Source of the DNA: a virus
Lineage: Duplodnaviria; Heunggongvirae; Uroviricota; Caudoviricetes
Length of the DNA stretch: 44,246 nucleotides
Virus record (IMG/VR): IMGVR_UViG_3300045988_013393
Span: 1 to 44,246 of that record
Reading direction: 5' to 3' (one strand)
Shown: in pieces, positions 2,203 through 28,975 of the stretch
Position numbering within the stretch: the first letter of the stretch is position 1
Layout of the letters: each line of letters starts with the position of its first letter
Position numbers and translations under genes: made by a program
Notes under the pieces: generated by a model
Databases searched by the model: none
What the model saw: the letters and a program-made list of their open reading frames with translations, nothing else
What the model was told of the DNA's origin: nothing

Positions 2203-2388
2203 ATGCTAGAACGTCGGGGCCGAAGCACAAATCATCAAAGTAAGCACAAGGATTATACAATGACGAAGTTAATAGTTCCACAGTTGCGCCGCCAGAAACA
2301 CGGCGCTGATTTCTTCGCACCGGTAAAGATGAACCGCGCAATGCGTCGTATGCAGGAAGCCTTAGAACGCGCGGAGAAAAAGAAATGA
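2203..2388 (+). CDS. Hypothetical small basic protein (start uncertain, possibly 2260)
   Basis: ORF overlapping the primase start by ATGA; lysine/arginine-rich. Confidence 0.35.
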   Translation: MLERRGRSTNHQSKHKDYTMTKLIVPQLRRQKHGADFFAPVKMNRAMRRMQEALERAEKKK

Positions 2389-4918: not shown

Positions 4919-4949
4919 TAGCCTATACCAAACGAGAGGAGAGAAACAA

Positions 4950-5450: not shown

Positions 5451-5493
5451 CTATCTCGCGGCCTTCGGGCCGCTTTAACTGAGGGTCGGAATT

Positions 5494-5766
5494 ATGATTT
5501 ACCAACTCTACCGCGCCGTTGACAGGCGGGATAACATAGAGGCGTTATGGCTGTTGCGTGCGCCGTCCGGTGCACACCAGATGGAAGAGATGGCGTACTT
5601 AGGAAAAGTACCACGGCCTAAAGATATAGGCCGTCACGTGTCGCAGATTAAGCGCACGACTTTTGCCAAGCCTGACTTTTATGTCTTCGAGTCGATGTAT
5701 GGGTGGGCTATGCACTGCGACCATAAGACACGACATTTAATTGACCAGTGGGAGAGCAGGGTATGA
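5494..5766 (+). CDS. Hypothetical protein (90 aa)
   Basis: ORF, ATGA-coupled to the downstream nuclease gene. Confidence 0.45.
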   Translation: MIYQLYRAVDRRDNIEALWLLRAPSGAHQMEEMAYLGKVPRPKDIGRHVSQIKRTTFAKPDFYVFESMYGWAMHCDHKTRHLIDQWESRV

Positions 5767-7781: not shown

Positions 7782-9980
7782 ATGCCTAATCTATTGTATC
7801 TGGATACTGAGACATTCTCTGAAGCGGACTTAAAGAAAGTCGGATCGTATGCGTACGCGGAGCATCCGACAACCGAGATTATAATTTGTACATATGCCAT
7901 TGATGATGGGCCCGTAGAAGTATGGGATTGCACTTCCGAACCGGTAATGCCAATAAGCCTCCGCATTGCGCTGCGCAATGTTATGCGCGGACGTATGAGA
8001 ATTGTAGGTCATAACTTTTTAATGTTCGACAGGCTTGTTATGAAGCACTGCTGGGGCGTTGATATCAAGCCAAGAAACACCATTGACACGATGATTAGAG
8101 CGTTTCGTCACGCGTTGCCGGGTTCACTTGACGCATTGTGCGAAGTGCTGGGCGTATCTGCGGACAACGCGAAAGACAAACGCGGTAAAGCACTGATTCA
8201 GCGTTTTTCTAAACCGACGCCGAAGAACTACAAAATCCGCCGTTACACCGCCGAAACTCACCCAGATGAGTGGGCGCTGTTCATCAAGTACGCCGTGAGC
8301 GACATCACTGCGATGCGTGAAGTCTTCCATAAGCTGCCGCGTTGGGGTAACTCCGAGTTCGAAGACCGTGTACTGGAACTTGACCAGTTAATCAACGACC
8401 GCGGGTTTAAGGTTGATGTGGCGCTGGCGGAAGCTGCGATTGAGGCCGTAGAGAAACACAAGGCGCAGTTGCAGGAAGAAGCCCAACGCAAATACGGCGG
8501 CTCGCTAACTGGCAAAGACTTTCTACCTATTCTGCGGGAACTGGCCCCCGCGCACCGTATTCATAACGCGCAGAAGTCGACACTCAATGACCTGCTGGCG
8601 GATGATGATTTGCCAGATGACGCCCGCACGATTATCGAAATGCGCCTCGGGGCCGCGTCTACAGCATCGACGAAATATAACCCGCTGCTGCTGGGTCGCT
8701 CGTCGGACGACCGTCGTCGCGGTTGCTTGCAGTACGGCGGGGCAAAACGCACTTTGCGATGGGCGGGTAAAGGCTTCCAGCCGCAGAACCTGGCGCGCGG
8801 GTACTATCACGATGATGAACTGGATAAAGGCATTTCAGCGTTACTTAAGGGCCGTGCGCATCGCCGTTTTGATGTGGCCAAGCTAACGGCATCTACGGTT
8901 CGTAGCTGCATTATCCCGGAAGCCGGGCATAAGTTTGTCGTCGCCGATTACTCTAACGTTGAGGGTCGTGGGCTTGCGTGGCTGGCGGGCGAAGAAACCG
9001 CGCTCGATACGTTCCGCGCCGGACTGGATATTTACTGCGTAACCGCGGGCAAGATGTTTGGTATGGACCCTGATGACATTAAGAAAAACTTCAAGGAAAT
9101 CAGACAGATAGGCAAAGCATGCGAACTGGGTCTCGGCTACGAGGGCGGCGTCGGAGCGTTCGTTACGTTCGCCAAAAACTTAGGCCTCGACCTTATTGAG
9201 ATGGCAAAAACAATGGACGGGACTTTCCCCGACCACATCTGGGCTGCTACCGCACGTGGGTATGAGTGGGCGCGTATTCAGGAAGCCAAGCGACCACCGC
9301 ATCCCGGTGAAAAGGATGACCGACCATCATATATTCTGGACAAGAAAGTGTGGCGCACATGTGATGCAATCAAGCGTATGTGGCGCGAGTCACACCCGGA
9401 AACAGTAGCGTTCTGGCGCGACCTTAAAGATGGAATTTTAGCCGCTGTTCGTAATCCTGGTCGTGAATTTTGGGCCGGGGCACACTTGCGCCGGAATGGT
9501 GAAAGGGCTATCCGCATATGGCGTACCGTAGAATTTGATTCGTCGGGCAGGAAGGTTCCTGGCTGGTGGTTGTGTATGGAGTTGCCGTCAGGCCGTATCC
9601 TCTCGTATCCGGGAATCGGCGTTAGTGTGACAAAGGAAACAGACGAAGACGGACGGGTAAACACGAATGTGCGAATCAAGTATCAGGGTGAAAACCAGTT
9701 AACCCGCCAATGGACTACCCTGTACACCCACGGCGGCAAAGCCTGCGAAAACATTGTTCAGGCGCTGTGCCGTGATTTACTCGCATATGCGATGATTAAT
9801 GTTGAGGGTGGCGGGTATCCCATCGTGCTTTCGGTACACGATGAACTGGTGTGTGAAACTCCGGATACCCCAGAGTACACGGTGGCCGAACTGGAAAAAT
9901 TAATGTGTTCTCTGCCTGAGTGGGCAGAAGGCTTCCCTCTTGTCGCGGAAGGTGCGGAGATGAAGCGCTATGCTAAGTAA
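7782..9980 (+). CDS. DNA polymerase, family A, with 3'-5' exonuclease domain
   Basis: Exo I motif LYLDTETFS; polymerase motif A VVADYSNVEGR; motif C LSVHDELV. Confidence 0.85.
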   Translation: MPNLLYLDTETFSEADLKKVGSYAYAEHPTTEIIICTYAIDDGPVEVWDCTSEPVMPISLRIALRNVMRGRMRIVGHNFLMFDRLVMKHCWGVDIKPRNTIDTMIRAFRHALPGSLDALCEVLGVSADNAKDKRGKALIQRFSKPTPKNYKIRRYTAETHPDEWALFIKYAVSDITAMREVFHKLPRWGNSEFEDRVLELDQLINDRGFKVDVALAEAAIEAVEKHKAQLQEEAQRKYGGSLTGKDFLPILRELAPAHRIHNAQKSTLNDLLADDDLPDDARTIIEMRLGAASTASTKYNPLLLGRSSDDRRRGCLQYGGAKRTLRWAGKGFQPQNLARGYYHDDELDKGISALLKGRAHRRFDVAKLTASTVRSCIIPEAGHKFVVADYSNVEGRGLAWLAGEETALDTFRAGLDIYCVTAGKMFGMDPDDIKKNFKEIRQIGKACELGLGYEGGVGAFVTFAKNLGLDLIEMAKTMDGTFPDHIWAATARGYEWARIQEAKRPPHPGEKDDRPSYILDKKVWRTCDAIKRMWRESHPETVAFWRDLKDGILAAVRNPGREFWAGAHLRRNGERAIRIWRTVEFDSSGRKVPGWWLCMELPSGRILSYPGIGVSVTKETDEDGRVNTNVRIKYQGENQLTRQWTTLYTHGGKACENIVQALCRDLLAYAMINVEGGGYPIVLSVHDELVCETPDTPEYTVAELEKLMCSLPEWAEGFPLVAEGAEMKRYAK

Positions 9981-12807: not shown

Positions 12808-14799
12808 TCCTAGTTTTGTATACGTCCAGTTAAATGTCGTCGTGCCCTGACTTGTTATCGCTACATCCCTTCCTGATGCAGAAAACGTTATGAATGCCCC
12901 CACTTTTAATGGCGTTAGAGTTAACGCACCATCATACATCGCTAGTTGGGTAGAAGAGTAGTTGGTTCCGCTATCCGAAGCCCATACACTAATGAGATAC
13001 ATCCCCTGCATATTTGGCAATGTAAACAATGTTGTTTGCGTACTGGCATTTACTAATTGCGTTCCTTTTGCGGTGTAGAAACCGGGGGTCTGTAGACCAG
13101 CGGATGATACTTGTTGGGTGTACCCACCAGATACAAGACCAGATATCGGGGTGCAGAACCAGTTAACATTACCCTGACTAACTACTGATATAACGGGGGT
13201 GCCACCTGCAGGCGCGCGCCAGCGTCCGCTGTACACGTCAATTCGGGATGTTGCGTCCTTAGCGTATAACGTAACAGGGTATCCAGTTCCGATGTAAGTG
13301 ATTGCGTTCTCCGACAAGTCATCCTCAGAAGAGTCGATTATAACCTGACTTGTTCCGGATGCCTTTATGAAAGAAACGACACCACTTGCCGCGGGGGCTA
13401 CAGTTTTCATCTGGTTTTGATGAGCTGTTAAGCCAGATATTTTGCCATTAGTGTTCTCAAAATGGATAAGAGAACAATCGGAGCCGCCGTCTGTAGAAAT
13501 GATATTTCCTTCAGCATCAAATCCCATGATGTTAACCGAGTGCGAGTTAACGAAATGCAAACCGGCACTCCCGTAAGACCCTCCGGATACGCCTATCGCT
13601 GATTGGTCCATAGCGCAGTTGAGCATAGTTACAGACATGACGGCACCAAATTGATAAGGCGAGACGCATCCGGATGCGTAGCAAGTCTCCATCAAAATTG
13701 TTGTTCCTAGTGTTTTAATAAAGCCATCATGACAATTTCGCGCCCATACGTTTTGTAACTTAGTAAGGTAAGTTCCGGTGGTGTCGGAGAAACAGCGCCA
13801 TGCACCATGTACTGTGCAGTTTTTAATCTCAGACATTTCAAGACCAGTAGTACCGGCTTCAGTGGAGTAGAAATTAAATGCTATCTTCCCACTATTTCCG
13901 GTCGTGACGGTTGGCGTATCCCCCGGATTGTAGAATATATACAGTCCGTCGATGAACAGTTGAATCATTTTCGTCCCACCGGAAGAGCTGCCCTGAGCGA
14001 GCGCGAAAAGGGATATATCTCCGTCAACGGATATAAACGACTGGGCACGGTTGATGCCGTCGGTGTTCTCGCCGACGATTCTGACGCTATTATTGAAATA
14101 GATGGTGGAGTTAACGAAGCCCGTTCCTTTTGGGATTAGCACTGTCTTTTTGGAGTTGCATGCGGCCTGTATGGCAGCGTAATCAGTCGACTGGGTAAGA
14201 CTCGTAACAAAGGGGTATACCATCTGGGCTGCTGTAAGAGTAGAGAATTTCTCGCTTAGTGGGTGGATGTCACCATCCCATGTAGCGCCGAAGTCATAAA
14301 TACTTACAGCATCACTTACCTTGCTATGTAGGGTTCTCCCAACGGCTCCGGCCAGTACAGATTTAACCCCGACCATGGCGTCGCCTAGTTGCACATCGTC
14401 CGTGTTTGCTAAATCATCGCGTAGATATGGGTCGGTCTGCGGCTTCCAGTTAGCGTTACCGACCGGGTTAAACGATGCAGGGACAACAACCGGAAGCGTA
14501 CCCGCGTATGAGTACCACGTTTTACTCACCGGGTCATAAACAATTTTGTCACGGTCATTAACAGTTAGCGTGCCGCCGGTAGAAAAGTCCCACGATACGG
14601 GAGAAAAACCAGCGTCACGCAGTACCGCCGGGAGGGTCTTCTGCGTCTGGCCTGTAACAGCATTGGTCGCGTAATCAATATCTGCACCACCAGCAACCCC
14701 GCCTGCTTTACCGGTGATAACCTCGATTTCGAAAATCTGGTGTTTACGTGCGATTTGCATCGACTCCAGACTTACAACATCACCACATCCGCTTGACAT
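12805..14799 (-). CDS. Tailspike / tail fibre receptor-binding protein (664 aa)
   Basis: Last gene of tail module; GAGGA RBS; Gly/Ser/Thr/Asn-rich central region typical of beta-helix tailspikes. Confidence 0.6.
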   Translation of the reverse strand: MSSGCGDVVSLESMQIARKHQIFEIEVITGKAGGVAGGADIDYATNAVTGQTQKTLPAVLRDAGFSPVSWDFSTGGTLTVNDRDKIVYDPVSKTWYSYAGTLPVVVPASFNPVGNANWKPQTDPYLRDDLANTDDVQLGDAMVGVKSVLAGAVGRTLHSKVSDAVSIYDFGATWDGDIHPLSEKFSTLTAAQMVYPFVTSLTQSTDYAAIQAACNSKKTVLIPKGTGFVNSTIYFNNSVRIVGENTDGINRAQSFISVDGDISLFALAQGSSSGGTKMIQLFIDGLYIFYNPGDTPTVTTGNSGKIAFNFYSTEAGTTGLEMSEIKNCTVHGAWRCFSDTTGTYLTKLQNVWARNCHDGFIKTLGTTILMETCYASGCVSPYQFGAVMSVTMLNCAMDQSAIGVSGGSYGSAGLHFVNSHSVNIMGFDAEGNIISTDGGSDCSLIHFENTNGKISGLTAHQNQMKTVAPAASGVVSFIKASGTSQVIIDSSEDDLSENAITYIGTGYPVTLYAKDATSRIDVYSGRWRAPAGGTPVISVVSQGNVNWFCTPISGLVSGGYTQQVSSAGLQTPGFYTAKGTQLVNASTQTTLFTLPNMQGMYLISVWASDSGTNYSSTQLAMYDGALTLTPLKVGAFITFSASGRDVAITSQGTTTFNWTYTKLG

Positions 14800-14811: not shown

Positions 14812-17367
14812 TTAACTAAAACCGTTGCTGAATCCGTCGGAGAAACCGCGACCGAAAGGCGCGACGCCGTCGTATTTATAGAAATCTGCTTCATAGTTAA
14901 TCCCGGTAATCTTAACCGTTCTGTCGTCTCCGGGGTCAACTGTAGAAACAAGAATCATCTGAGCATTATGCCTTGCTTCGTTACCGAATGAAAACTCAGT
15001 TTTTAGTGCGCTATTCCCTGTGTATATCGCCTCTTGAGGCGCAGAGAGCATAACCACTTCACGGTCGTGGCTTCCAGGCACAACAGCAACACTTTGAACT
15101 CCGCCGTCTCTCTTCTTAAGAATCAGTGAGTGGTCATCCCCCGGAGTAAACGTAACCGGCTGAGAAAGAGTAAGGGTAAGCCCATTAACGGCAACGACAT
15201 AACCATCTTGAGGTGCTACTCGCGAGCCTTTAACTACGCTTATTGCCCGTCCTGGAAGCACAAAAACCCCTTCTTCTGTCGCCGTGAATGATACCGTCAC
15301 CTTCTTCAACAGGTTCTTCTGGTACCGACGGTACGCCGCCCAGTACGCCTGACGATAATTACGTATACCTTTAGAGTCATACGTTTCTGTGTTAACACCG
15401 CCCTCGGCGGGAATGCTGATGGTCTCTTTTACGTTAGTATCTGGGTCGATGTAGGAGAACTTAAGACTATCGTATACCTGAGCGTCGTTGAATGTGCGCG
15501 TCCACTTTTCCGAAGCTGTTGTCTTACTTCGATGTGTGAATACCATTTCCGGCCCCATACGCGGGCGCTCGAAATCCAGTAATATGTCTTGCCCTTTACG
15601 ATATGGAGTGCAGAAAATAGCATCGGCTATTGTGCTGATGATATCCTGCATGGTCATTTTATAGTCGTCAAAAGTGTAGCAGAATTGACCCGCCTCCACG
15701 TTACCGAAATAATTCTCAATCTCGGTCTGAGTCGCTAACAACTTGTCCATATTGGATGTTGTTAGGTTGAGATTACCTACTACCGGGTCACGGGCGAGAC
15801 GTATTAATGATTGAATGGCCTGAGTATTCGGTGTCATTACGGTGTCGAATACACCATTACCGAGGTATTTGTACACCATCTCTGTGGCGACCATACGTAA
15901 CTGTGGTTGCTTAATCTCTGCGGCCCGCGGCGTCTGCTTACGTGCCGAGTGTACGGTAGTACGATTGCCGTAATGTGGCGTAGTGTCACGGACCTGACCG
16001 TAAAGGTTGATATAGGAAACCTCGTCTACCACGGTGCCCTCGAAATCAAGGTCCAGGTTGGTAACACGACGGGCACGTACCCTAACTTTCGACCTCATGG
16101 GCAAGTCGGCGTAAATAGTAACTCCGGTGTAGTCGGCGGACCGACCAGATATAACGGCCTGTTTTGAATAGATACTCCCGTATGGGGCACCGGTTTCATC
16201 GAGTAGTTGGTATTGGAGTTCAATAGTTACCGACGTACGCAATTTACTGCCGTTGTCTTTATACATACCGTTAGCGGCAGCGATGTTGACTACTACGCGT
16301 TCAACTTCCAGGCGGTTTAAGGTGGTCCAGTCGGTTAATGTTCTTTCATACGTATCCACGGGGCCTACCCACGTGTCACTTCTCTGGGAAAGTGAATAGG
16401 TGGTTGAGCCTAAAGCAGCCCAATTAGACGCGCCGCCGGTGTCGACCCGCAGCTCGAAGTTATCGACATAAAGAACACGAAAGTTGCCGTTGGTATTTGT
16501 TACGTCCGGAACGTCAAAGTTATTGAACGACGCGGTGTCACCAACAGATAATATTTCCGCGAAGCCAGAATCCCCCGTGTCGTCATACAGGTATCCAATT
16601 TTTGTAGCAGAGTCATATCTCACGCGGCCCGTGTCGCTTGGGTTGACCCGAATATCGTTCTGGGCTTTAAGAACGGCTCCATCTACTTCATTAGACGCGA
16701 TAGTTATATAAAGATTCTGATTGATAGGTTCCCCCACCAGAAGCTGCGGGGTATTTGTATTGTTGGGGGATGTAAACGGCGCGTACACCGCGACAGAGGT
16801 CCCCGTAATCTCCTGTACCTTAGTATCGCCGTCGGTAATATCTTCGGCCCTGATGTCCAGATACCCACGACCGGCATCGTAGTATCCGTATTCAATAATG
16901 CGACCAGATTCATCGAATATTTTATAGGTAGTCATGAGGTCATTAGGGATAGTCTGGACTCTGCCGCAAATATCATACGACCGTTCATATGGACGGGGTT
17001 TATTGTTTCGGTCCGTCAGGCTGTTGTTGGGGGACTCAGCCTGCTGGTTCGCTAAACTCGTTTTAGGCGTTTTCTGCGACGGAGAAATCAACTTGGTAAC
17101 AAATTTAAGCACACCCAAAGGGTCCAGGAGTTTACCCAGAAAACCGCCACCGCCACCAGCGCCTTCGATAATATGGAAAACATCGTCTTCTTTCAGCGCT
17201 TCGAAATCTTCAGTTACTTCCGTGTCCTCGCCGATCTCGCCACGGTAAATACGTACAGGCACCCCGTCGGGGATGTTAGCGACGACGTATTCCATCGGCG
17301 GTACGTTGTGCCGTTCGCGGTCGAAAGTACCGTCTTCGTTACGGGTGTAATGTAATGTCAGCGCCAA
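14812..17367 (-). CDS. Tail tip / central fibre protein (lambda gpJ-like; start uncertain, TTG at 17367 with GGAGA RBS)
   Basis: Large protein following gpK/gpL-like genes in lambda order; ORF track 14812..17442. Confidence 0.6.
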   Translation of the reverse strand: MALTLHYTRNEDGTFDRERHNVPPMEYVVANIPDGVPVRIYRGEIGEDTEVTEDFEALKEDDVFHIIEGAGGGGGFLGKLLDPLGVLKFVTKLISPSQKTPKTSLANQQAESPNNSLTDRNNKPRPYERSYDICGRVQTIPNDLMTTYKIFDESGRIIEYGYYDAGRGYLDIRAEDITDGDTKVQEITGTSVAVYAPFTSPNNTNTPQLLVGEPINQNLYITIASNEVDGAVLKAQNDIRVNPSDTGRVRYDSATKIGYLYDDTGDSGFAEILSVGDTASFNNFDVPDVTNTNGNFRVLYVDNFELRVDTGGASNWAALGSTTYSLSQRSDTWVGPVDTYERTLTDWTTLNRLEVERVVVNIAAANGMYKDNGSKLRTSVTIELQYQLLDETGAPYGSIYSKQAVISGRSADYTGVTIYADLPMRSKVRVRARRVTNLDLDFEGTVVDEVSYINLYGQVRDTTPHYGNRTTVHSARKQTPRAAEIKQPQLRMVATEMVYKYLGNGVFDTVMTPNTQAIQSLIRLARDPVVGNLNLTTSNMDKLLATQTEIENYFGNVEAGQFCYTFDDYKMTMQDIISTIADAIFCTPYRKGQDILLDFERPRMGPEMVFTHRSKTTASEKWTRTFNDAQVYDSLKFSYIDPDTNVKETISIPAEGGVNTETYDSKGIRNYRQAYWAAYRRYQKNLLKKVTVSFTATEEGVFVLPGRAISVVKGSRVAPQDGYVVAVNGLTLTLSQPVTFTPGDDHSLILKKRDGGVQSVAVVPGSHDREVVMLSAPQEAIYTGNSALKTEFSFGNEARHNAQMILVSTVDPGDDRTVKITGINYEADFYKYDGVAPFGRGFSDGFSNGFS

Positions 17368-17723
17368 AATTCTATCTCCGCATAAGTTTCGCGCAAGTCT
17401 TCCAGACGGTCTAACCGTACCTGGCGACTCGCCAGCTCGCAATGACTAACCATACCGTCATAGTATACTCCGGCGTGCCAGATTACACGGTTTCTGTGCC
17501 GTGTTGCCATCAGCACGGCATCGAAGTTTTGCGGAGTTTCTACGCGTACAAGGCCTTTAGTATCTTTATGGCCTTCTTCGAAGGCGTCGTTAATCTGTGT
17601 TGGCGAAGCGACGTTAAACTCAGGCGTAAAGAGGCCTACATCCGCACGAACGTTACGGACATGGTGCCAGCAATTACGACGGCGAAAGTCGTACGGCAAC
17701 CCTGTATAAGAATTAATATTCAT
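17358..17723 (-). CDS. Tail assembly protein, lambda gpK-like (NlpC/P60-type Cys/His)
   Basis: Conserved Cys (RRNCWHHV) and His (HAGVYYDGMVSHC); position between gpL-like and gpJ-like genes. Confidence 0.55.
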   Translation of the reverse strand: MNINSYTGLPYDFRRRNCWHHVRNVRADVGLFTPEFNVASPTQINDAFEEGHKDTKGLVRVETPQNFDAVLMATRHRNRVIWHAGVYYDGMVSHCELASRQVRLDRLEDLRETYAEIEFWR

Positions 17724-18235
17724 GTGGACAAAACGCCCCGTAACAATGGGATTACTGAAGGGGTCATTAGTTCACCAGTGGCCCTTTGGTTCAACATAGG
17801 AACGCCAACGTCGGCGGTAAATAGCCCCTTTTCCTGGTTTATCGACTGTAACTCGTACACAACAGGCCCATCAGCCGGGTAAGACAAATCAGTACCAACA
17901 AAACGGCGGAATATGAATTTAGGTAGCACGGTATTATCAGGCGGTATCCTGTCCATCTCATCATCTAACTGGTTACCAATATCAGGTAATGCGAACGACG
18001 CCCGCTGGTCCATGTCGTTATTGTTGGCGGCCCCTTTAGCCTCCATAGGGGTAGCCTCAAACGTTACGACTTCTCCGGTCTCTAACGTCGCCGTCAGGTC
18101 GGAAGTTCCGCGCACAAGCAAATACCGCTTTGAAAGAAGCGGGTGTACTATCTCCAGCGTCGTGTAGTCAATTTCGCCGTCGGGATTTGAGGCCAGCTTA
18201 CGGCGGTAGGCTGCTTCTACAGATTCCTGGCTCAT
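17720..18235 (-). CDS. Minor tail protein, lambda gpL-like
   Basis: Size and position in the TMP-M-L-K-J order. Confidence 0.45.
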   Translation of the reverse strand: MSQESVEAAYRRKLASNPDGEIDYTTLEIVHPLLSKRYLLVRGTSDLTATLETGEVVTFEATPMEAKGAANNNDMDQRASFALPDIGNQLDDEMDRIPPDNTVLPKFIFRRFVGTDLSYPADGPVVYELQSINQEKGLFTADVGVPMLNQRATGELMTPSVIPLLRGVLST

Positions 18236-18238
18236 AAA

Positions 18239-19330
18239 TTAACCGTCCACATTAAAATCAATACGAGTGATATATTTACTGCCCCACGCAGAATCCGCTT
18301 GGGGGATAGTCGCGTAACCGTCAACAGCCTGAACGTTTACCACAGAGCTGTCGGAGTATGTAATGTCGATGCTTGTTGCGCCGTTCATTGCTACTTTTGC
18401 CGATGCCGCTTGGCGGCCCACAGCAGACGAATCTGTGATTATTGGCGACGTGGCAAATGGTTTTTTTTCAACCTGAGCGGACGCAACTGAAAAAGAAGAT
18501 GCTCCATCCGATGCGTAAGACGTGAGTCTGGTAGACGTCATAGACGGTATGCTTGCTACCGCTATGGAGGATAGTGCAGAACCGTCCCCTGTCGCGATTG
18601 TGGTAGTTGAGCATAGAACCCGCCCAGTGCCTAACCCGCCTATCTGGTAGTTAATAGAACCGCCTTCTGGCGGAACACGCCCAACGGCAACACCATCAAT
18701 AAATGTTAGAGGCCATTCATTAGTGGCTGATTGCACAAGATTGCCGTTGCGGTTGATGTAATAAACCTGCGGCCCGTCGTACACAATGCGGCTATCCAGG
18801 GCGGACGCCAGAAGGTTAATCGGCGGGTATCCTGCGGGCCCTTCATCGCTCCAGATGCGCGGGAACGTAGTCTCATAGTTCGCGTATATTTTCAGGAAAC
18901 TACCCAGACAATCCCCGTAGCAACCATACAAATCTGGCAGATTCTTAGTAAGACATGTGTCTTCCTGAATTGCTGTGCGCTCTGCTGTAGCCGTAAACGT
19001 AATGACCCAGTTCTTGCCGTCGTCTGTGCTATCGCTAATATCAGACGTAATAAGAACCTGGTGGTCTTCGATACCTAAACCCGTATCGTGCGGCATGATA
19101 AATGAAGACGCACCGCCGTCTATGTTGTTCAGGAAGCTATAGAACGCCTGGCGACCGAGCGATGATACGACCAGGGTAACGCTAATCGGCACCGGTTCGA
19201 AGTATGTATCACGCCCCTGACGAGGCACACCGCCCTGAACTTCTGTACGCCAGATATTACTCCCTCGCGTTTGGGAGTACCCCTTCGACACTATTGGTCG
19301 AAGGGACATAGGGAATCTCAAATCACTCAT
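18239..19330 (-). CDS. Minor/distal tail protein (lambda gpM-like position)
   Basis: Immediately downstream of the tape measure gene. Confidence 0.45.
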   Translation of the reverse strand: MSDLRFPMSLRPIVSKGYSQTRGSNIWRTEVQGGVPRQGRDTYFEPVPISVTLVVSSLGRQAFYSFLNNIDGGASSFIMPHDTGLGIEDHQVLITSDISDSTDDGKNWVITFTATAERTAIQEDTCLTKNLPDLYGCYGDCLGSFLKIYANYETTFPRIWSDEGPAGYPPINLLASALDSRIVYDGPQVYYINRNGNLVQSATNEWPLTFIDGVAVGRVPPEGGSINYQIGGLGTGRVLCSTTTIATGDGSALSSIAVASIPSMTSTRLTSYASDGASSFSVASAQVEKKPFATSPIITDSSAVGRQAASAKVAMNGATSIDITYSDSSVVNVQAVDGYATIPQADSAWGSKYITRIDFNVDG

Positions 19331-19333
19331 TGG

Positions 19334-21670
19334 TTAATACCCCGGCTGGTTTCGTGTAGCCCGGCGGGACTTGGAGATTGCACTGTTGCTGTCTTGTAAC
19401 GCCGCCGATACTGTTTCACTGATGATAACACGTAACCGCCCTTCGTCGTCACGCTCTGTAACGGCGGAATCAACTCGTCCGGTGGTGTTGTTGACGATTG
19501 TCACGCTGTCACCGCCTGACTTGTTGCCGTTCTCGCCCATAATCTGGCGCATCTGTTCTGCGGTACGGACGCGTGACGCACCTGCCGGCATAATAACTTC
19601 GGGCTTGTTACGTTCTGCAATGGTGGATAGCTGCCCGGCAGCTAAGTTACCACCCTGTTCACGGGCCGAACGAATCTTGCTGATGTTAGCGAGACCTGCC
19701 GCTACCGCTGTAGCTGCTGCTATCGGCCCAAGTATCCAACCAACAAAAGGAATCGCGGACGCAGATTTATAAGCCTCGATGGCGGATGTGTATGTGGCGA
19801 TGGTGGCCTGGGCGATAGCAAACGCTTTATAAGCGGTAGACGCTTCGCCAAGCGACGATTTAATATTATCCGCCATCATTCCGAAAGCGTTACCGGTAGC
19901 GTTGGCACGTTTCAAAGCATACTGGTCGTTTATAGCATTAACCGCAGCCTGGTACTGCTCCTCGTTAATAAGGTTCTGTTCGCGATATCGGTCTGCAACG
20001 TCAAGTTTTTGTTGTTCCTGAATCTCCAAAAGCTCAAGCTCTGCGGCATTCTGACCCATAATCTGAGCCATGAAGTCTTCACCTTTCTGGTTCTTCTTCT
20101 GTCGTTCTTTCTTCCGCTTGGCGAGTTCTTCCTGGCGAGCGGTGTCCGCCTCCAACATAATCTGAGTTTTAGCGTTCTCGTATTGCTGGTCGCTAAGAAG
20201 CTGATTGCCGTAAAACTCCTGTAGCTTGGTTAGCTGCTGTTCCTGGTTGGCTTCTATTTTCTGGAATACGTCATCATTGAGATGAATCGACTGGTAGTAG
20301 AAATCCTCAGCGGCTTTCTTCTGGCGCTTGAACGCATCTGCGGCTTTCTTAGCGGCTTTTGCACCTGCGCTATCATCTTCGGATCCGCCACCAGTACCGG
20401 TTACCTTAAATTTACTAAGACCTTCTTCCTTAGCGGCTTCTTTGTCGATGTCATATGCCGCGCGTTTAAGCGCGACGATATTTTGCTGAGCCTCCACCTG
20501 TTCGCGGAAACTTTTACGGGTCAGGTCCGCAACATCGCGCTGAGTATCCAGTGCCATCCCTAGCTGGAAGTTAATGTTTTTTGCTACGTCTACAGATTCC
20601 CCTGGTGTGAAGGCAGCTTTCACCAACCGGCCAGCGTCCTGTGCCCCTTTAACCATATCTTCAAAGAAGCGCTCCATCGCGGTAAATTCTTCTGCGATGA
20701 AATCGAGCGCATCGGCAGCTGATTCCGCGATGGTTGTCGCCGTTTGTTCGCCGCTGTCGGTGATACTTTTACTGCTAAAATCCCAAAGTTCATTCAGCCC
20801 GTTTATTGCGTCGCCTACGAAACCAAATGCCGCGTCGAACGACATCTCTATCGCGCTGCCCACTTCTGACGCGATGTCACCCCACATACGCATCTCAGCG
20901 GTGAGTTCGCCGGATGCTACCTGTGCGTTAAGTTCCTGGATTAAATCATCGATGTACCGGATAGGTTCCGCAAGAGCACCAACATCAAGGCTGGTGGCCA
21001 GTGTCATTTTTAACTGCGACCATGAGTCGCTGGCACTGGCGATGGCCCCGTTAAGTGTGTTGGCCTGGTCCGCCATAGCCCCCGCGAAGTTTACGTTACC
21101 AATGTTGAGCAGGTATTGCTCGATGTCGGCAGCGCTCTTCTTAACTACCGTAGTGGTGCCCTGGAATGTAAATTCAACATCGTTTTTGTTCTGCTTGGCC
21201 TTGATACCAAATTCTTTAAGGCGCTCAAATTCAAATGTACTAGCGTCCGCAACGGCCTCAATCATCTGATTAAGGTCTTTACCCATAGCAGCGGCAGTGT
21301 TGCCATAGGAGCGCAACGCTTCTTCTGAGGGGGTAAGGCCGAGAGCCACCAGTTTACGGAATCCCTCTACCGCCTGTTCAAGGCCATACGGAGTGTCGCG
21401 CGCGAAGTCTTGCAGGATGCTTAACGCCTGTCTTGCCCCCTGCGTGCTTCCGGTTAGCGTTTTCAGGCTGGCGGACATCTTGTCCAGTTGCCGTTGGGAG
21501 TCTACCAGTTCCTGTGCGGCCTTGTACGCGGTCGCGGCGACAATTGAAGCGAGTCCAGCTACGGCTGCCCCCGCTACTTTTGCCGACTTGGAGAGATTAT
21601 CAAGACGGTCCGATGTAGCTTTCGCGCCTTGCTCTGATACCTTTACAACTAAACTAGCTACATCAGCCAT
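19334..21670 (-). CDS. Tail tape measure protein (778 aa)
   Basis: Long Ala/Gln/Glu-rich coiled-coil protein directly after G/T chaperones; C-terminal hydrophobic segment. Confidence 0.8.
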   Translation of the reverse strand: MADVASLVVKVSEQGAKATSDRLDNLSKSAKVAGAAVAGLASIVAATAYKAAQELVDSQRQLDKMSASLKTLTGSTQGARQALSILQDFARDTPYGLEQAVEGFRKLVALGLTPSEEALRSYGNTAAAMGKDLNQMIEAVADASTFEFERLKEFGIKAKQNKNDVEFTFQGTTTVVKKSAADIEQYLLNIGNVNFAGAMADQANTLNGAIASASDSWSQLKMTLATSLDVGALAEPIRYIDDLIQELNAQVASGELTAEMRMWGDIASEVGSAIEMSFDAAFGFVGDAINGLNELWDFSSKSITDSGEQTATTIAESAADALDFIAEEFTAMERFFEDMVKGAQDAGRLVKAAFTPGESVDVAKNINFQLGMALDTQRDVADLTRKSFREQVEAQQNIVALKRAAYDIDKEAAKEEGLSKFKVTGTGGGSEDDSAGAKAAKKAADAFKRQKKAAEDFYYQSIHLNDDVFQKIEANQEQQLTKLQEFYGNQLLSDQQYENAKTQIMLEADTARQEELAKRKKERQKKNQKGEDFMAQIMGQNAAELELLEIQEQQKLDVADRYREQNLINEEQYQAAVNAINDQYALKRANATGNAFGMMADNIKSSLGEASTAYKAFAIAQATIATYTSAIEAYKSASAIPFVGWILGPIAAATAVAAGLANISKIRSAREQGGNLAAGQLSTIAERNKPEVIMPAGASRVRTAEQMRQIMGENGNKSGGDSVTIVNNTTGRVDSAVTERDDEGRLRVIISETVSAALQDSNSAISKSRRATRNQPGY

Positions 21671-22055
21671 CGTTTCTACCCTCGAAAATAGCGTCTAAGC
21701 TCATGATGATGTCAGATTCGAACATGCCTATATTCTGGCCTGAAACGGTGCTGTATGCCACTAAATCCGACCATCTTAACTGTTCGCGCGGGTACATCTT
21801 GATGCCATCATCGTCCACTCGGCGGGTGAATTTGATTTCCCTGTACTTCTCGAAGGTGGTTAATAGCTCAGGGGGGCATTCCGGCCCTGTGTCCGGCGTT
21901 GCTTCCGGCGCGTCTTGCATAACCCCCATAGCAATTAGCGCGGCTTTATGCCCGTCGGCGATACTGTCAAACTCCCGCCGTTTGTGGCGGGTTATGAAGT
22001 TCCAACGGGCAAACTGGAGCAACGCGTCTACTTTTCCTGCAATTGGTGAAGCTGT
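21663..22055 (-). CDS. Tail assembly chaperone gpT-like, probably made as G-T fusion by -1 frameshift
   Basis: T frame stays open upstream of its start and overlaps the end of the G ORF; slippery GGAAAAG on minus strand (plus 22031-22037) sits at the last G codons. Confidence 0.55.
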   Translation of the reverse strand, partial: TASPIAGKVDALLQFARWNFITRHKRREFDSIADGHKAALIAMGVMQDAPEATPDTGPECPPELLTTFEKYREIKFTRRVDDDGIKMYPREQLRWSDLVAYSTVSGQNIGMFESDIIMSLDAIFEGRNDG

Positions 22056-22444
22056 TCATTGTGGAAAACAACAACGTGTTCAGCGAGTCGTTTATATTGT
22101 GAGAAAAGAGTATTCAGGTTCTCTTTATTAAATTCATCGTCGAGACTCCAACCGTTAACCAGTTCAAGCGCTAACTGGCGGTTAAGGTCCGTTGCGGCGT
22201 CTTCCATCTTGATGTTGTATTCCGAGAAATCTTTCAGTTCCTCGCATTTATCGCGAAGCGGTTTCAATTTACCTAATGCCGCGCGGTACGCAAGTGTAAA
22301 CGCCCTCATAGCTTTAACAGCAACGTCTGCCTCCGGTGAAACAACGTTCAGCCACTCCCCTGAATCGGTGCCGTCTTTCAGTGGTATCGGCATACGGGCG
22401 CCTTTTTCTGCCTCAGCTTCGTAATAAAAATCAGAAAGTTTCAT
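22028..22444 (-). CDS. Tail assembly chaperone gpG-like
   Basis: 138-aa ORF directly upstream of the TMP with slippery site at its 3' end. Confidence 0.6.
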   Translation of the reverse strand: MKLSDFYYEAEAEKGARMPIPLKDGTDSGEWLNVVSPEADVAVKAMRAFTLAYRAALGKLKPLRDKCEELKDFSEYNIKMEDAATDLNRQLALELVNGWSLDDEFNKENLNTLFSQYKRLAEHVVVFHNEQLHQLQEK

Positions 22445-22552
22445 TCTTTAATCCTTTGGTTAAGAGGTTACAGGTTAATGGTAAATGCGCCAGACGGGAA
22501 CCACCCGCTTTTCGTGTGCGACACTAGGCGCAAAATTATTCTATCACATTAC

Positions 22553-22581
22553 TTGCGCACCCCAACATAATAGGATACTAT
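22553..22581 (+). promoter_or_regulatory. Class B promoter (TTGCGC-N17-TACTAT) driving plus-strand accessory island
   Basis: Near-identical to the element at 1273-1301; conserved leader ttaactcaaacaggag before ATG 22623. Confidence 0.5.
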
Positions 22582-22622
22582 TCACTTACACCAACAATGT
22601 TAACTCAAACAGGAGCTACACC

Positions 22623-22814
22623 ATGACAGGTATTACTATGTTCTTCTTAATCATTATCGTTTTAGTTTATTTTATCCCGTTTTTAGTGGCCCATATGCGC
22701 GGACATAAAGCGAAACTGGCGATATTCATGGCTAATCTGTTTCTCGGCTGGGTTCTGCTGCCGTGGGTATTTATTTTAATCTGGGCTTGCAACTCGAATG
22801 TCAAAGAGAAGTGA
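22623..22814 (+). CDS. Small membrane protein, superinfection-immunity (Imm)-like
   Basis: 63 aa, two TM segments; YFIPFLVAHMRGHKAKLAIFMANLFLGWVLLPWV...IWAC resembles the Imm-family signature as recalled from memory; AGGAG RBS. Confidence 0.5.
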   Translation: MTGITMFFLIIIVLVYFIPFLVAHMRGHKAKLAIFMANLFLGWVLLPWVFILIWACNSNVKEK

Positions 22815-22852
22815 GCTAGTATAGGACAAATCCTAAACACGAGGAAGTAAGC

Positions 22853-23983
22853 ATGGCCCGGAAGAAAATAACCGACGAACAGTTACAGGAAGAATTGAAC
22901 GCCGGAACAAAGATTATCGACATATCCCGTAAATACGGCATCTCAGACCGAGTTATTCGTATCCGTAAAGCGAAGCTGGCGAAGAAAGGCGTAGGTCACG
23001 GTCGTGACGTTAGCCATCTTGTCCCGGACGGCTACAAAATTAAAGGAACGTCGTCACTGGTGGACGAGTTCGGCAACACTAAGTTGCAATGGGTTAAGAC
23101 AGACACCGACGCCGAACGTCAGGTCGAGTTAATGAAAGCCGTGATCGAAGGAATGAAGTCGGAGATTACGCCAGTTGCGCCGGTTAAAGCGACTCGAGCC
23201 AAACGCGACGATAAACTACTCAATCTGTACACGGTATCTGATTTCCATCTTGGTATGCTGGCCTGGGCTGACGAGAGCGGCGACGACTGGGATATGAAGA
23301 TTGCGGAAGACCTGTTCTCCCGATGGTTCGATGCGGCGTTTCAGAAAGCACCAGATGCAGGAACTGGGGTTATTAACCTGCTGGGTGACTTCGCGCACTT
23401 CGATAGTCTGGATGCGGTTACGCCAGCGAGTGGTCATGTTCTTGATGCGGACACTCGTTATCAGAAACTGGTCCGCTACATGATTCGTATGGTACGCCGT
23501 GTTGTTGACATGGCGCTGGTTAAGCATAAATCTGTTCGCTTGCTTATCGTGCAAGGGAACCACGACGAAAGCGGAATGATTTGGTTAGCTGAGATGTTTA
23601 GTACGCTGTACGACAATGAGCCGCGTGTGTTCGTCGATACGTCGCCGGATGTTTACAAGATGGTCCAACACGGCAAAACTACGCTGTTCTTTCACCACGG
23701 GCATAAGGCGCGATTCGACGCTATCGAACCGGTAATGATTGCCAAGTTCCGTAAAGCGTTCGGCGAGAGTGTTTACAGCTACGCCCACGTAGGCCATCTG
23801 CACCACCAGAAGATTGTAGAAAGCCGTAACATGATTGTTGAGCAACACCGCACCTTAGCGGCTAAAGACGCCTACGCCTCGCGCGGCGGATGGATGTCGG
23901 GCCGTAGTGCAAATGTAATTACTTATAGCGCCGAATATGGCGAGGTCGCACGTTTAACTATTTCACCGGAGATGCTGGGATGA
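22853..23983 (+). CDS. HTH domain fused to calcineurin-like metallophosphoesterase (SbcD/Mre11-like motifs)
   Basis: N-terminal HTH (ISRKYGISDRVIRIRKAKLAKKG); MPP motifs DFHLG, GDFAHFD, GNHDE, HHGH, GHLHH; DxHLG is typical of SbcD/Mre11 nucleases. Confidence 0.6.
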   Translation: MARKKITDEQLQEELNAGTKIIDISRKYGISDRVIRIRKAKLAKKGVGHGRDVSHLVPDGYKIKGTSSLVDEFGNTKLQWVKTDTDAERQVELMKAVIEGMKSEITPVAPVKATRAKRDDKLLNLYTVSDFHLGMLAWADESGDDWDMKIAEDLFSRWFDAAFQKAPDAGTGVINLLGDFAHFDSLDAVTPASGHVLDADTRYQKLVRYMIRMVRRVVDMALVKHKSVRLLIVQGNHDESGMIWLAEMFSTLYDNEPRVFVDTSPDVYKMVQHGKTTLFFHHGHKARFDAIEPVMIAKFRKAFGESVYSYAHVGHLHHQKIVESRNMIVEQHRTLAAKDAYASRGGWMSGRSANVITYSAEYGEVARLTISPEMLG

Positions 23984-24468
23984 AAGATATTGTGATTTTC
24001 GATTTAGACGGGACATTGGCGGATGGTACTCATCGTTTACACCTGCTGCCGAAAGATAACTACGGCGAAACCTGGGCGTGGAAGCCTTTTAACATGGCCT
24101 GCAAAGATGACGCGCCCATTAAAGATAACATCCACTTGTGCAACACGCTGTGGCATACCGGGATGACCATAATCATCCTTACCGGGCGAAGCGACGACGC
24201 CGAGGAAGAAACTCGTGAGTGGTTACGTAAAAACAATGTCAAGTTCGACGTTCTGTTAATGCGCAGCAAGCACGACAACAGAAAAGACATCGTAATTAAA
24301 GAAGAGGTGTTACGTGCTATCGGGCTGGAGAGAATATTGTGTGCGTTCGACGACTCTCCAGCGGTAATAAAGCATTTCCGCGGACTCGGTATAACCACTC
24401 ACGCGGTTACTGAATACGACTGTAACGGGAACTCTACACACTTAAAATCACACGGGAGCGATAAATAA
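23980..24468 (+). CDS. HAD-family phosphatase, polynucleotide-kinase 3'-phosphatase-like
   Basis: DxDGT motif (VIFDLDGTLADG) and downstream segments resemble the T4 Pnk phosphatase domain (from memory); ATGA-coupled to the MPP gene. Confidence 0.55.
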   Translation: MKDIVIFDLDGTLADGTHRLHLLPKDNYGETWAWKPFNMACKDDAPIKDNIHLCNTLWHTGMTIIILTGRSDDAEEETREWLRKNNVKFDVLLMRSKHDNRKDIVIKEEVLRAIGLERILCAFDDSPAVIKHFRGLGITTHAVTEYDCNGNSTHLKSHGSDK

Positions 24469-25037
24469 TGGCTAAGGTAATTATTCTTAATGGCCCTGCG
24501 GGCTGCGGGAAAGACACACTTGCTATGGCGCTGGTAGAAATGGGCTTTGCGAAAGGAACTACCAGTTTCAAGAATCCAATGTTCAATATTGCTCGGGCAG
24601 CGTTAGGCCCGGATGCTTACCACGAATTTCTCGACGGCTACGACGACCGGGCACGGAAAGAAAAGCCAGAATGTTTCCTTAATGGGTTGTCGCGACGTCA
24701 GTTCATGATTGCTATCTCGGAGCAATTCATTAAGCCTGTACTTGGCAATGATTATTTCGGTAAGTATCTCGCTGAAAACTTGCCTGACGGCGACGAAGTT
24801 TTTGTAGTGTCCGACGGTGGGTTTGCCAGTGAAGTTGCCCCTATCGTCGCCGCTGGGCATGACGTGCGAATCGTCCGCTTGCACCGAGACGGCTACACGT
24901 TTGACGGGGATAGCCGTGGCTACCTGTACGATATTGATGGGGTAGTATGCCATGACGTCGCCATCATTCCTGGTGAGATTACATTAACCGCGGCCACGGT
25001 TGCCAATAGAATCCTGGGGATTTACCCAAATGCGTGA
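24468..25037 (+). CDS. P-loop kinase (dNMP-kinase-like; possible polynucleotide/nucleotide kinase)
   Basis: Walker A GPAGCGKDT resembles the SGKDT P-loop of T4 gp1 dNMP kinase; start overlaps the phosphatase stop (TAATG). Confidence 0.5.
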   Translation: MAKVIILNGPAGCGKDTLAMALVEMGFAKGTTSFKNPMFNIARAALGPDAYHEFLDGYDDRARKEKPECFLNGLSRRQFMIAISEQFIKPVLGNDYFGKYLAENLPDGDEVFVVSDGGFASEVAPIVAAGHDVRIVRLHRDGYTFDGDSRGYLYDIDGVVCHDVAIIPGEITLTAATVANRILGIYPNA

Positions 25038-25206
25038 AGGCACAATGGGGACAATATACGTTATCCGCGTATATGACGAAGAATGGGATGAGTGGGTTGA
25101 TATTTACGCCGTAGGTAGCAAGGAAGAGGCGACAAAAGAGATGACAGAACGGAGTGACAGAGGTCAGTTAACTAACTTCTACGAAATGCCATTCAAAAGT
25201 GAGTGA
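25030..25206 (+). CDS. Hypothetical small protein (58 aa)
   Basis: ATG overlapping the kinase stop; last gene of island before terminator. Confidence 0.35.
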   Translation: MREGTMGTIYVIRVYDEEWDEWVDIYAVGSKEEATKEMTERSDRGQLTNFYEMPFKSE

Positions 25207-25210
25207 GAAA

Positions 25211-25237
25211 AAGGCCCCGAAAGGGGCCTTAGTTTTA
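25211..25237. terminator. Bidirectional intrinsic terminator (AAGGCCCC-gaaa-GGGGCCTT + TTTTA)
   Basis: Closes the plus-strand island; convergent with the major tail gene. Confidence 0.65.
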
Positions 25238-26407
25238 TGCGTAGGTGATACGCTGGATAACAATAGACGACTGGTACTGATTGCCGGTAGCCTGGCCTTC
25301 GATGGACTGAGTGATTGACTCTGGTCCGCCAATCTCAGGCGTAACCGCCGTAAGCTCTGCGCGTTTCAGGCTGAAAGACATAGCCCCGTTTACCCCCGCC
25401 AGAATAGAGTTAATCTCTACCTGCTGTTCGTTGATAAACTTCTGAATCATCGCCATGTCGTACAGCTTACCAGAGATGGAGAATGTGTTAGCTGCGCGGC
25501 CACGTTCCACGAACGCAACACTACTGTTGCCGAGTTCGAACTGCGCGGAAGCACCGTTGTCGTTGGTGATGGTCAGAGTATCGCAACGCAACGGCGTAGA
25601 ACCGTCGAACACAGACACATCTACGGATGAGAACGGCTCATCGGTAAACGTCACCCGGGAGAAATCAGAACCTGCTGGCGGTGCAGAAAGAATTTCCTGA
25701 CTCAGACCGATGAACGGGAAGCTGCCTGTCACCATCGCGTTTACGGCCTGTTCAATGGTGAAACCGGAGATTTCCACGCCTTTGGTCAGCATGTACGCGT
25801 CAAGGTTCCCGCACTGTCCTTTGAACCATGTCAGGATGGAGAACGTCTTACATTCGTTACCGGTTTCCAATTTATCGCCTGTTTTAGCGTCGGTGGTTAC
25901 AGTCTCTGCTGTCAGCGTGTGCTGGATACCCGCACCCGTAACTACAAGAGCAGAAACCGCGGTCACGATAAACGGTTTTGCGTTGTCGCCGGTTAAGTCG
26001 GTGAATGCAATCAGGTCGCCAACCTCTACACCGTCAGTAATGAAGCTACCGGCAGCGCGGGTGAATGTTTTACCTGCTGGAGCGACCGTAATTTCAGCAC
26101 CCGTAATCTCTACCCCGTCCTGCCACGTAGAAGTCATAGCACCCGCAAGGAAATCATCCTGGCTACGTGAGCTAAGTTCGATGGCGTACTCCCCGCTAAC
26201 CTGTTTGTTACCGGTGCGGATGGATGTGGTTTCTCTGCTGCCGTCGAGTTCGTTGGAAGTCAGCGCATCGCGGGTTACCGCAGGAACACCGCCAGTGTTA
26301 CGCAACGGCGACCAGACCGGGCTAGTCGGTGTTACGCCAGGGGTCACTTCCGCCACATAGAATTGCGCGGTATTCGCGCCCTTAAAAGGAGTTGTAGCCA
26401 TATTCAC
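25235..26407 (-). CDS. Major tail (tube) protein (390 aa)
   Basis: Position immediately upstream of G/T chaperones (interrupted by island); Thr/Ser-rich. Confidence 0.55.
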   Translation of the reverse strand: MNMATTPFKGANTAQFYVAEVTPGVTPTSPVWSPLRNTGGVPAVTRDALTSNELDGSRETTSIRTGNKQVSGEYAIELSSRSQDDFLAGAMTSTWQDGVEITGAEITVAPAGKTFTRAAGSFITDGVEVGDLIAFTDLTGDNAKPFIVTAVSALVVTGAGIQHTLTAETVTTDAKTGDKLETGNECKTFSILTWFKGQCGNLDAYMLTKGVEISGFTIEQAVNAMVTGSFPFIGLSQEILSAPPAGSDFSRVTFTDEPFSSVDVSVFDGSTPLRCDTLTITNDNGASAQFELGNSSVAFVERGRAANTFSISGKLYDMAMIQKFINEQQVEINSILAGVNGAMSFSLKRAELTAVTPEIGGPESITQSIEGQATGNQYQSSIVIQRITYA

Positions 26408-28279: not shown

Positions 28280-28792
28280 TTAACCCCGGTACACGTTAAA
28301 CGAGAAGCCATTGTTAAGACCACCACACAGTAACGGGCGTAAAGCGTCATCGGCTGCGGTGATTGATGTAGTAGCGCCAGAGCTGCCGTTGTTGAAGTAG
28401 GTGACGGTTACTGCGCCCTCTACGCGCTCGGTCTGTACCGAACGTCCGTCAGAGTTAGCCCGCACCTCAGTACCTGCGCCATATGTAGCAGCGGCAATTA
28501 CCTGCGCAAGAATTACCTGTTTCGGAATGGCGTTGTTGGCCACCGGGAACCCGTTTAACGTAACGCCGGTGCGGGGGTATGCAAGAGACTGTTCGGCGGA
28601 TACTCGACGACCGCACATCTGCGGTTCTGCAAGCCCTACATAAGCAGCACCGTTGCGTAAGGCCACCTCTGCTGCGGTATCGTCTTCCGGCAGCTCAAGG
28701 CCATAATTAGCCGCTAACGCGCGGGCGTCAGCCAGACTAATGTAACTGTCGGCATTCGGGACGATCACCCCAGTTTCCACGATTAGCGGCAT
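28280..28792 (-). CDS. Head completion/connector-associated protein (170 aa)
   Basis: ORF in structural block. Confidence 0.4.
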   Translation of the reverse strand: MPLIVETGVIVPNADSYISLADARALAANYGLELPEDDTAAEVALRNGAAYVGLAEPQMCGRRVSAEQSLAYPRTGVTLNGFPVANNAIPKQVILAQVIAAATYGAGTEVRANSDGRSVQTERVEGAVTVTYFNNGSSGATTSITAADDALRPLLCGGLNNGFSFNVYRG

Positions 28793-28795
28793 AAA

Positions 28796-28975
28796 TTATT
28801 CCTCTGACTTACGGCGACGACGCTTAGTACCACCGCCGTTGTTGTGCGCTTCTTCGTTGTCCGGTTGAGTCGCAACCAGTTCATCCGCTTCTACAACACC
28901 GCGAACCGGCATTACCTGACCGTCAACAATATCAACGTGGGTGTACTTTTCGCGGATTACGTAATTATCTGCCAT
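28796..28975 (-). CDS. Small protein (59 aa) with basic C-terminus (KRRRRK)
   Basis: ATG 28975 with RBS AAGGAAAGG; below ORF-track cutoff. Confidence 0.3.
   Translation of the reverse strand: MADNYVIREKYTHVDIVDGQVMPVRGVVEADELVATQPDNEEAHNNGGGTKRRRRKSEE

Follow-up and report, generated by a model that had tools for sequence, protein, structure and literature searches.

What is a run of DNA- and nucleotide-processing enzymes doing among the tail genes of a phage? The question is raised by positions 22,553 to 25,237 of IMG/VR record IMGVR_UViG_3300045988_013393, a Caudoviricetes stretch of 44,246 nucleotides (hereafter the window, meaning that whole stretch), where five plus-strand genes lie between minus-strand tail assembly chaperone genes and a minus-strand major tail gene. 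In order, they encode an Imm-type membrane protein, a helix-turn-helix (HTH) protein fused to a metallophosphoesterase (MPP), a HAD phosphatase, a P-loop kinase and a small acidic protein. An earlier sequence-only reading had placed these genes correctly and had proposed that the three enzymes form a split nucleic-acid end-healing toolkit, possibly for counter-defence, with nucleotide salvage as an alternative. The analysis described here favours a module for DNA degradation and deoxynucleotide recycling, a reading drawn by analogy with phages T5 and T4 and given a probability of about 0.5. Most likely, the operon consists of ordinary, already annotated auxiliary genes of DNA and nucleotide metabolism, and not of a new counter-defence system based on RNA repair.

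With ~87-90% identity to K1G and ST20, the window belongs among the Kagunavirus-type siphophages (Guernseyvirinae). Annotations of these genes in K1G-type phages go back to 2010, the notes on K1G ORF18-21 recording similarity to T1 and Era103, and the genes are likewise annotated in Drexlerviridae; the combination, which the earlier reading could not match to a described system, is thus not new to the databases. The literature on Guernseyvirinae, Kagunavirus, Drexlerviridae and T1 yielded genome reports, with no functional study of these genes found. Family matches in Pfam and PHROG for four of the five genes (E 1e-14 to 1e-165) uphold the earlier gene calls and domain assignments, the motifs quoted for the enzymes (DFHLG, GDFAHFD, GNHDE, GHLHH and GPAGCGKDT) are all found in the translations, and homologues of the MPP, HAD and kinase proteins each occur in >1500 phage records. 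A search of NCBIfam with the operon proteins gave no useful match. Some database labels are misleading: phrog_415, which holds the HAD protein, is called 'polynucleotide kinase', and the kinase 'replication factor C' or 'ATPase', labels that invite an RNA-repair reading unsupported by the evidence.

Family placement of the three enzymes

The kinase (24468-25037, plus strand, 189 amino acids) is predicted to be of the phage deoxynucleoside monophosphate (dNMP) kinase type represented by T4 gp1 and T5 Dnk, and its fold and motifs favour this placement over that of a polynucleotide kinase (PNK). It matched phrog_139 with an E value of 4.8e-46, and the best PDB match returned by Foldseek for its AlphaFold2 model (pLDDT 92.9) was the T4 dNMP kinase (1DEK; E 4.7e-6, TM 0.68); the matches that followed scored 0.55 or lower, and T4 PNK was not among the top 50. 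In profile comparisons, hhalign gave 94.7% over 49 columns with T5 Dnk, which has been characterised, and 51% over 74 columns with T4 gp1, whereas the alignment with PseT was limited to 25 P-loop columns. The GKDT P-loop, a motif after strand 2 and LNGKSP are common to the operon kinase and gp1, but the two proteins are only ~19% identical and differ in length (189 versus 241 amino acids). As in the phage dNMP kinases, the GKDT P-loop is accompanied by similarity in the NMP-binding region; a Pnk-type 5'-kinase domain was not found in the protein. Single-sequence and profile searches of the PDB with the MPP and the kinase returned P-loop or borderline matches only, and a narrow kinase-family profile did not retrieve 1DEK by sequence; with these searches being uninformative, the folds of both proteins were assigned from structure prediction. 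The sequence-only reading had itself named placement among the dNMP kinases as a result that would tell against end healing, and it is there that comparison of fold and motifs with T4 gp1 and T5 Dnk puts the kinase.

The HAD protein (23980-24468, plus strand, 162 amino acids) is a stand-alone phosphatase of the type that forms the C-terminal domain of T4 PseT, as had been supposed from its sequence. It matched PF25109 (HAD_PNKP) in Pfam with an E value of 8.5e-21, its sequence matches in the PDB were Pnkp1 (4xrp, E 3.6e-7) and T4 PNK (1ltq), and hhalign aligned it with a T4-type PseT (from RB14) at 97% probability over 129 columns, the entire phosphatase domain. Conserved between it and T4 Pnkp are DxDGT, an Arg at +11, TGR, D-x-RKD-x-V-KEE and the DD motif. 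T5 Dmp, annotated as a deoxynucleoside-5'-monophosphatase, falls in the same PHROG (phrog_415), but the operon protein resembles the T4 Pnkp phosphatase far more closely than it does Dmp. It is homologous along its whole length to the phosphatase domain of T4 PseT/Pnkp and of the bacterial Pnkp1-Rnl-Hen1 systems; unlike in those systems, the phosphatase here stands alone, the kinase next to it is not of the Pnk type, and there is neither a ligase nor Hen1.

The third enzyme, the HTH-MPP (22853-23983, plus strand, 376 amino acids), matches phrog_704 over its full length (E 1.7e-165) and is predicted to be a nuclease like Mre11, SbcD and the archaeal PolD subunit DP1. Its AlphaFold model (pLDDT 90.7) has a three-helix HTH (residues ~8-44) joined by a linker made of a hairpin and a helix (61-104) to a calcineurin-fold core (119-376), and the N-terminal HTH is backed by HTH matches in Pfam for many members of the family; the Pfam models Metallophos and Metallophos_2 stayed below their gathering thresholds. 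All five metal-binding motifs of the calcineurin superfamily (DxH, GDxxD/H, GNH[D/E], H and GHxH) are present. In an alignment of 43 homologues, D130/H132, G178/D179 (together with H182), N236/H237, H282 and H315/H317 were invariant or nearly so, and motif II reads GDFxH, as in Mre11 and MPE nuclease. The closest folds to the model were those of three nucleases, PolD-DP1, SbcD and Mre11, so that the earlier description of an HTH fused to an SbcD/Mre11-like phosphoesterase, with a nuclease-type core nearest to those enzymes, stands. The protein differs from Mre11/SbcD and DP1 in lacking a capping domain and a Rad50/SbcC partner, and in having the N-terminal HTH instead; no such ATPase was present in the annotated genome of K1G, with which the entire window is collinear. 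The family is very large: it comprises 4648 clusters at the 50% identity level, and 2054 phage records contain homologues. This diversity was drawn from the search of 50% clusters, a first large homologue search having given only proteins at least 97% identical. A search of the BFVD for related folds returned many phage MPPs, none of them named and characterised.

Comparison of the MPP family with T5 A1 (phrog_1745) by hhalign gave a probability of 27% (E 7e-4), and local, relaxed and global runs gave no more than 27%. The relaxed alignment from this 27% comparison was collinear, with NHD-x3-S-x-WL, HGH, GHxH and ITY in common; a PHROG scan assigned T5 A1 to phrog_1745 only and not to phrog_704. 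Many T5 A1 homologues of ~530 amino acids (45-49% identity, some on contigs of 44-52 kb) carry an N-terminal HTH_23, HTH_38 or HTH_7 and have the same HTH-plus-MPP layout as the operon protein.

Proposed roles: healing of ends or recycling of DNA

The end-healing explanation would have the HAD protein remove 3'-phosphates, the kinase phosphorylate 5'-OH ends, and the MPP open 2',3'-cyclic phosphates or trim ends, after which a host ligase would seal cuts made in DNA or RNA by defence nucleases. Part of it is well founded: the HAD protein is a true Pnkp-type phosphatase, and the order of HAD gene then kinase gene is coupled and mirrors the pairing of phosphatase and kinase in Pnkp, a same-strand HAD gene preceding the kinase gene in 73 of 80 IMG/VR kinase loci (which come mostly from two lineages, so that the counts are not independent). 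In bacterial Pnkp/Hen1 systems, moreover, 3' end healing is carried out by a metallophosphoesterase. Also consistent with it is the Aeromonas podophage Aer_P220 (T7-like), in which an MPP (phrog_221), a HAD protein, a kinase homologue and an ATP-dependent DNA ligase are encoded in a row (1511-4493), the trio directly 5' of the ligase. Against this, in fold and motifs the kinase is like the dNMP kinases, its match to T4 Pnk being confined to the P-loop, and the MPP is nearest to DNA nucleases and has a DNA-binding HTH, unlike the lambda-phosphatase-like healing domains. A DNA or RNA ligase was found in neither the window nor K1G, which agrees with the earlier remark that none is nearby: no K1G gene is annotated as a ligase, and where the window does not match K1G it contains no unassigned long open reading frame (ORF). 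The operon proteins matched no PADLOC or anti-defence family (PADLOC 2.0, which predates Metis). Given a kinase like the dNMP kinases, a PNK match restricted to the P-loop and no ligase, end healing is weakened, and DNA degradation with dNMP recycling is favoured. What survives of the proposed toolkit is its Pnkp-type phosphatase; nucleotide salvage, the alternative offered with it, fits better, on the fold of the kinase and its motifs beyond the P-loop.

The recycling reading starts from the observed family placement, conserved catalytic motifs, gene order, coupling and distribution, and proposes from them the enzyme activities, the substrates, the order of steps and the link to breakdown of host DNA. 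The Imm-type protein would presumably block superinfecting phages, while the three enzymes would act in sequence on DNA, probably that of the host. The HTH-MPP would bind DNA and degrade it to 5'-dNMPs as a Mre11/SbcD/DP1-like nuclease. The Pnkp-type HAD phosphatase would strip 3'-phosphates that would otherwise block an exonuclease or polymerase; alternatively, it may trim nucleotide phosphates like its relative T5 Dmp. The gp1/Dnk-like kinase would then convert dNMPs to deoxynucleoside diphosphates (dNDPs), feeding phage DNA synthesis.

The analogy is with A1, Dmp and Dnk of T5 and with gp46/47 and gp1 of T4. Degradation of the host chromosome by T5 requires A1, a predicted metallophosphatase, and A1 alone suffices for it; dNMPs are dephosphorylated by Dmp and phosphorylated by Dnk (bioRxiv 10.64898/2026.04.02.716235). 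This T5 set is the closest functional precedent for the operon, although its genes are dispersed and fall into different temporal classes, whereas the operon genes are contiguous and translationally coupled. The invariant MPP motifs, the predicted nuclease folds, the DNA-binding HTH, the 1DEK match and the gene order all speak for recycling, as does orientation: the operon is transcribed in the same direction as the replication genes (helicase-primase and polymerase) and opposite to the structural genes. A role in nucleotide metabolism is also suggested by Vequintavirus V18, where a kinase homologue, followed by a distant HAD-like protein, is encoded beside the ThyX and ribonucleotide reductase genes. 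Independent support for the gene order comes from Aer_P220, in which an unrelated MPP takes the same position. Guernseyvirinae are sensitive to Ec2ApeA, and its trigger, deoxydinucleotides, was attributed by the authors to host DNA degradation (bioRxiv 10.64898/2026.01.26.701840); this lends indirect support to a breakdown of host DNA. Were the reading true, a 44-kb siphophage would carry a compact version of the host-DNA degradation and nucleotide recycling of T4, T5 and T7.

Several points weigh on the other side. Homology between the MPP and T5 A1 is not established beyond the superfamily level, and a search of the literature found no study showing degradation of host DNA by Guernseyvirinae. 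A 3'-phosphatase has no obvious step in a route by way of 5'-dNMPs, and a 5'-dNMPase coupled to a dNMP kinase would form a futile cycle unless their specificities differ. The three genes are also separable, the MPP gene of T1 being ~35 kb from the other two and some close relatives of the window lacking HAD and kinase, and they therefore need not form one pathway. Finally, the tight pairing of phosphatase and kinase is equally the logic of Pnkp, and for this reason end healing is retained as an explanation, albeit an unlikely one.

A second form of counter-defence, the removal of signals, would have the enzymes destroy or convert m6dAMP (the concern of Metis, or PUA-Cal-HAD, systems), pdNpdG (ApeA) or cyclic nucleotide messengers. 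Metis is kept silent by its own HAD phosphatase, MisB, which dephosphorylates m6dAMP (bioRxiv 10.1101/2025.11.05.686725); m6dAMP could be acted on in the same way by a phosphatase or dNMP kinase of the phage, and the patchy occurrence of HAD and kinase among close relatives is typical of counter-defence cargo. But Metis blocks T5 despite the Dmp that T5 encodes (bioRxiv 10.1101/2025.11.05.686725), the reported sensitivity of Guernseyvirinae to Ec2ApeA runs counter to protection, the HAD protein belongs to PF25109 and MisB to PF13419, and the MPP lacks a sensor domain, PUA or other, nor is there a PADLOC match. Signal removal is accordingly speculative and improbable. The operon resembles Metis itself in having a metallophosphoesterase gene beside a HAD gene (MisA and MisB in Metis), and Metis acts on what DNA degradation releases. 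Metis defends the host, however, and MisA, a metallophosphatase, has a PUA sensor and cleaves NAD+ or dNTPs, whereas the N terminus of the operon MPP is an HTH; the HAD protein scored 16.7 against HAD_2, below the cut-off of 23.8. A relationship between the two was rejected on domain content.

Gene order, coupling and distribution

Translational coupling within the operon had been described as ATGA, ATGA and TAATG. The first and last of these hold for the MPP/HAD junction (ATGA, 23980-23983) and the HAD/kinase junction (TAATG, 24466-24470); the third junction, between kinase and small ORF, is instead an overlap of ATGCGTGA (25030-25037), provided that the first ATG of the small ORF is its start. 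The Imm and MPP genes are uncoupled, being separated by a 38-nucleotide spacer with a GAGGAAG ribosome-binding site.

Every Guernseyvirinae relative examined has the Imm and MPP genes at this locus. HAD and kinase occur in the K1G- and ST20-like Kagunaviruses and in each of the 15 Kagunavirus-like IMG/VR loci that a search with the kinase profile returned, and are absent from Kagunavirus SZH-1 and Jerseyvirus SETP7, where a gene of 76 amino acids takes their place; in one Jerseyvirus jersey isolate, the slot is occupied by an HNH endonuclease, the 76-amino-acid gene and an Ant/Rha regulator. Since these alternate among relatives, the right half of the island is a cargo slot, and HAD and kinase are a swappable pair within it. 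The description of the whole as an accessory island is thus apt for that pair and not for Imm and MPP, which are fixed. Close relatives with the pair (ST20, K1G) and without it (SZH-1) offer a natural comparison that could reveal its contribution. The 76-amino-acid gene, which follows the MPP gene in relatives without the pair, matches only the C-terminal part of two families of longer proteins, phrog_2452 and phrog_17613 (one of them labelled ATPase), and may be a gene fragment or encode a small domain protein; comparison of the Jerseyvirus gene with the kinase and with the small ORF led to its rejection as a remnant of either.

Such variation in cargo raises the question of whether the enzymes are linked at all. 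They may be unrelated neighbours, the MPP working on the phage's own DNA, whether in end processing or in recombination-dependent replication, or else in a shut-off like that of T5 A1, and HAD and kinase being an independent mobile pair that settled in a cargo hotspot. The changing contents of the locus fit this, as does T1, where HAD, an HNH endonuclease and kinase are encoded in the left early region while the MPP gene, with its own terminator, is beside the lysis genes; in Dhillonvirus and Vibrio phages, the MPP occurs alone. On the other hand, MPP and HAD are translationally coupled in the window, Kagunavirus and several lineages of Drexlerviridae (Webervirus and others) have the three genes side by side, and a non-homologous MPP is upstream of HAD and kinase in the Aeromonas podophage. 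Independence of the genes is, on balance, an unlikely explanation. Among the 80 kinase loci noted above, the HAD gene abuts the kinase gene or is within 108 nucleotides of it in 37, and an MPP of the phrog_704 type is just upstream of HAD in 25.

The HAD protein of Aer_P220 is 59% identical to that of the window and the kinase homologue ~35% identical (by tblastn). The row of genes in this podophage implies that HAD and kinase have passed as a pair, by horizontal transfer, from one phage family to another unrelated to it. The Aer_P220 MPP was considered as a homologue of the operon MPP and rejected, since it belongs to phrog_221 and gave no match at the level of sequence or profile. A broader proposal, and a rather improbable one, is that the coupled pair, often behind an MPP nuclease, is a mobile cassette exchanged among unrelated lineages of virulent phages (Guernseyvirinae, Drexlerviridae and Aeromonas Autographiviridae) that processes breakdown products of host DNA, either as an assembly line from DNA to dNDPs or by removing tell-tale nucleotides (m6dAMP, deoxydinucleotides) that would signal to Metis or ApeA. 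In many T1-like phages, an insert of 0.45-2 kb separates HAD from kinase (T1 4948-6534, and IMG/VR loci); that of T1, an HNH endonuclease gene, looks like invasion of a conserved HAD-kinase pair by a homing endonuclease.

Signals, Imm protein and surrounding genome

The operon had been credited with its own class B promoter, which could not be verified. A weak sigma-70-like candidate (ATCACA-17-CATAAT, 9/12 matches) is located at 22543-22571 on the plus strand and is proposed as the operon promoter from its position only; six such sites were found in the region against 3.8 expected from shuffled sequence, which is not above expectation. A second weak candidate (TTAACA-17-TAGTAT, minus strand, 22575-22603), identified by consensus match only, is upstream of the chaperone start at 22444 and could serve divergently for the chaperone and tape-measure genes. 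At the other end, the bidirectional terminator that had been claimed was borne out: the hairpin at 25211-25230, AAGGCCCC-GAAA-GGGGCCTT, has an 8-bp stem with six G-C pairs and a GAAA loop. Because it is preceded by an A-run and followed by a T-run on the plus strand, this predicted intrinsic terminator would be able to act in both directions, and can be common to the plus-strand operon and the minus-strand major tail gene (25235-26407, stop codon 25235-25237).

The Imm-type protein (22623-22814, plus strand, 63 amino acids) is small and hydrophobic and matched Imm_superinfect (PF14373; E 8.7e-14, 51.6 bits against a curated cut-off of 27.9) and phrog_1039 (E 1.4e-23). It had been likened to superinfection-immunity membrane proteins, and a role in superinfection exclusion is predicted on these family features. 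Jerseyvirus genomes encode Imm at the same locus. A transcriptome paper on a Kagunavirus groups imm with the methylase and polymerase genes, and its text gives the three enzyme genes no class.

The small acidic ORF (25030-25206 or 25045-25206, plus strand, 58 or 53 amino acids) is a hypothetical protein in the ST20 annotation and matched nothing in Pfam, PHROG, NCBIfam or PADLOC; its DNA was found in only 22 phage records, some of them relatives lacking HAD and kinase. K1G lacks an equivalent of window positions 24945-25202, the stretch that spans the final ~30 kinase codons together with the small ORF; the K1G kinase has 184 amino acids and ends beside the major tail gene.

On the other flank, the two chaperone ORFs (22028-22444 and 21663-22022, minus strand) are in a G/T arrangement, and the K1G homologue is annotated as a joined coding sequence, the product of a programmed frameshift. 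DNA of the region 22400-25400 is about 88-91% identical to that of Escherichia phages ST20, EM1 and K1G and matched 330 phage records in total. Relative to K1G, ~0.87 kb is absent from the window at 28735-28797 (K1G 7931-8797), the site between head genes of the mobE-like homing endonuclease gene gp13 (K1G 7987-8736). Window positions 12809-14604 and 16027-22278, which take in the tail fibre or spike region as well as part of the tape-measure and of the distal tail genes, are 66-75% identical to K1G or have no match in it, while the remainder of the genome is 85-91% identical; this pattern of divergence is consistent with exchange of host-range modules.

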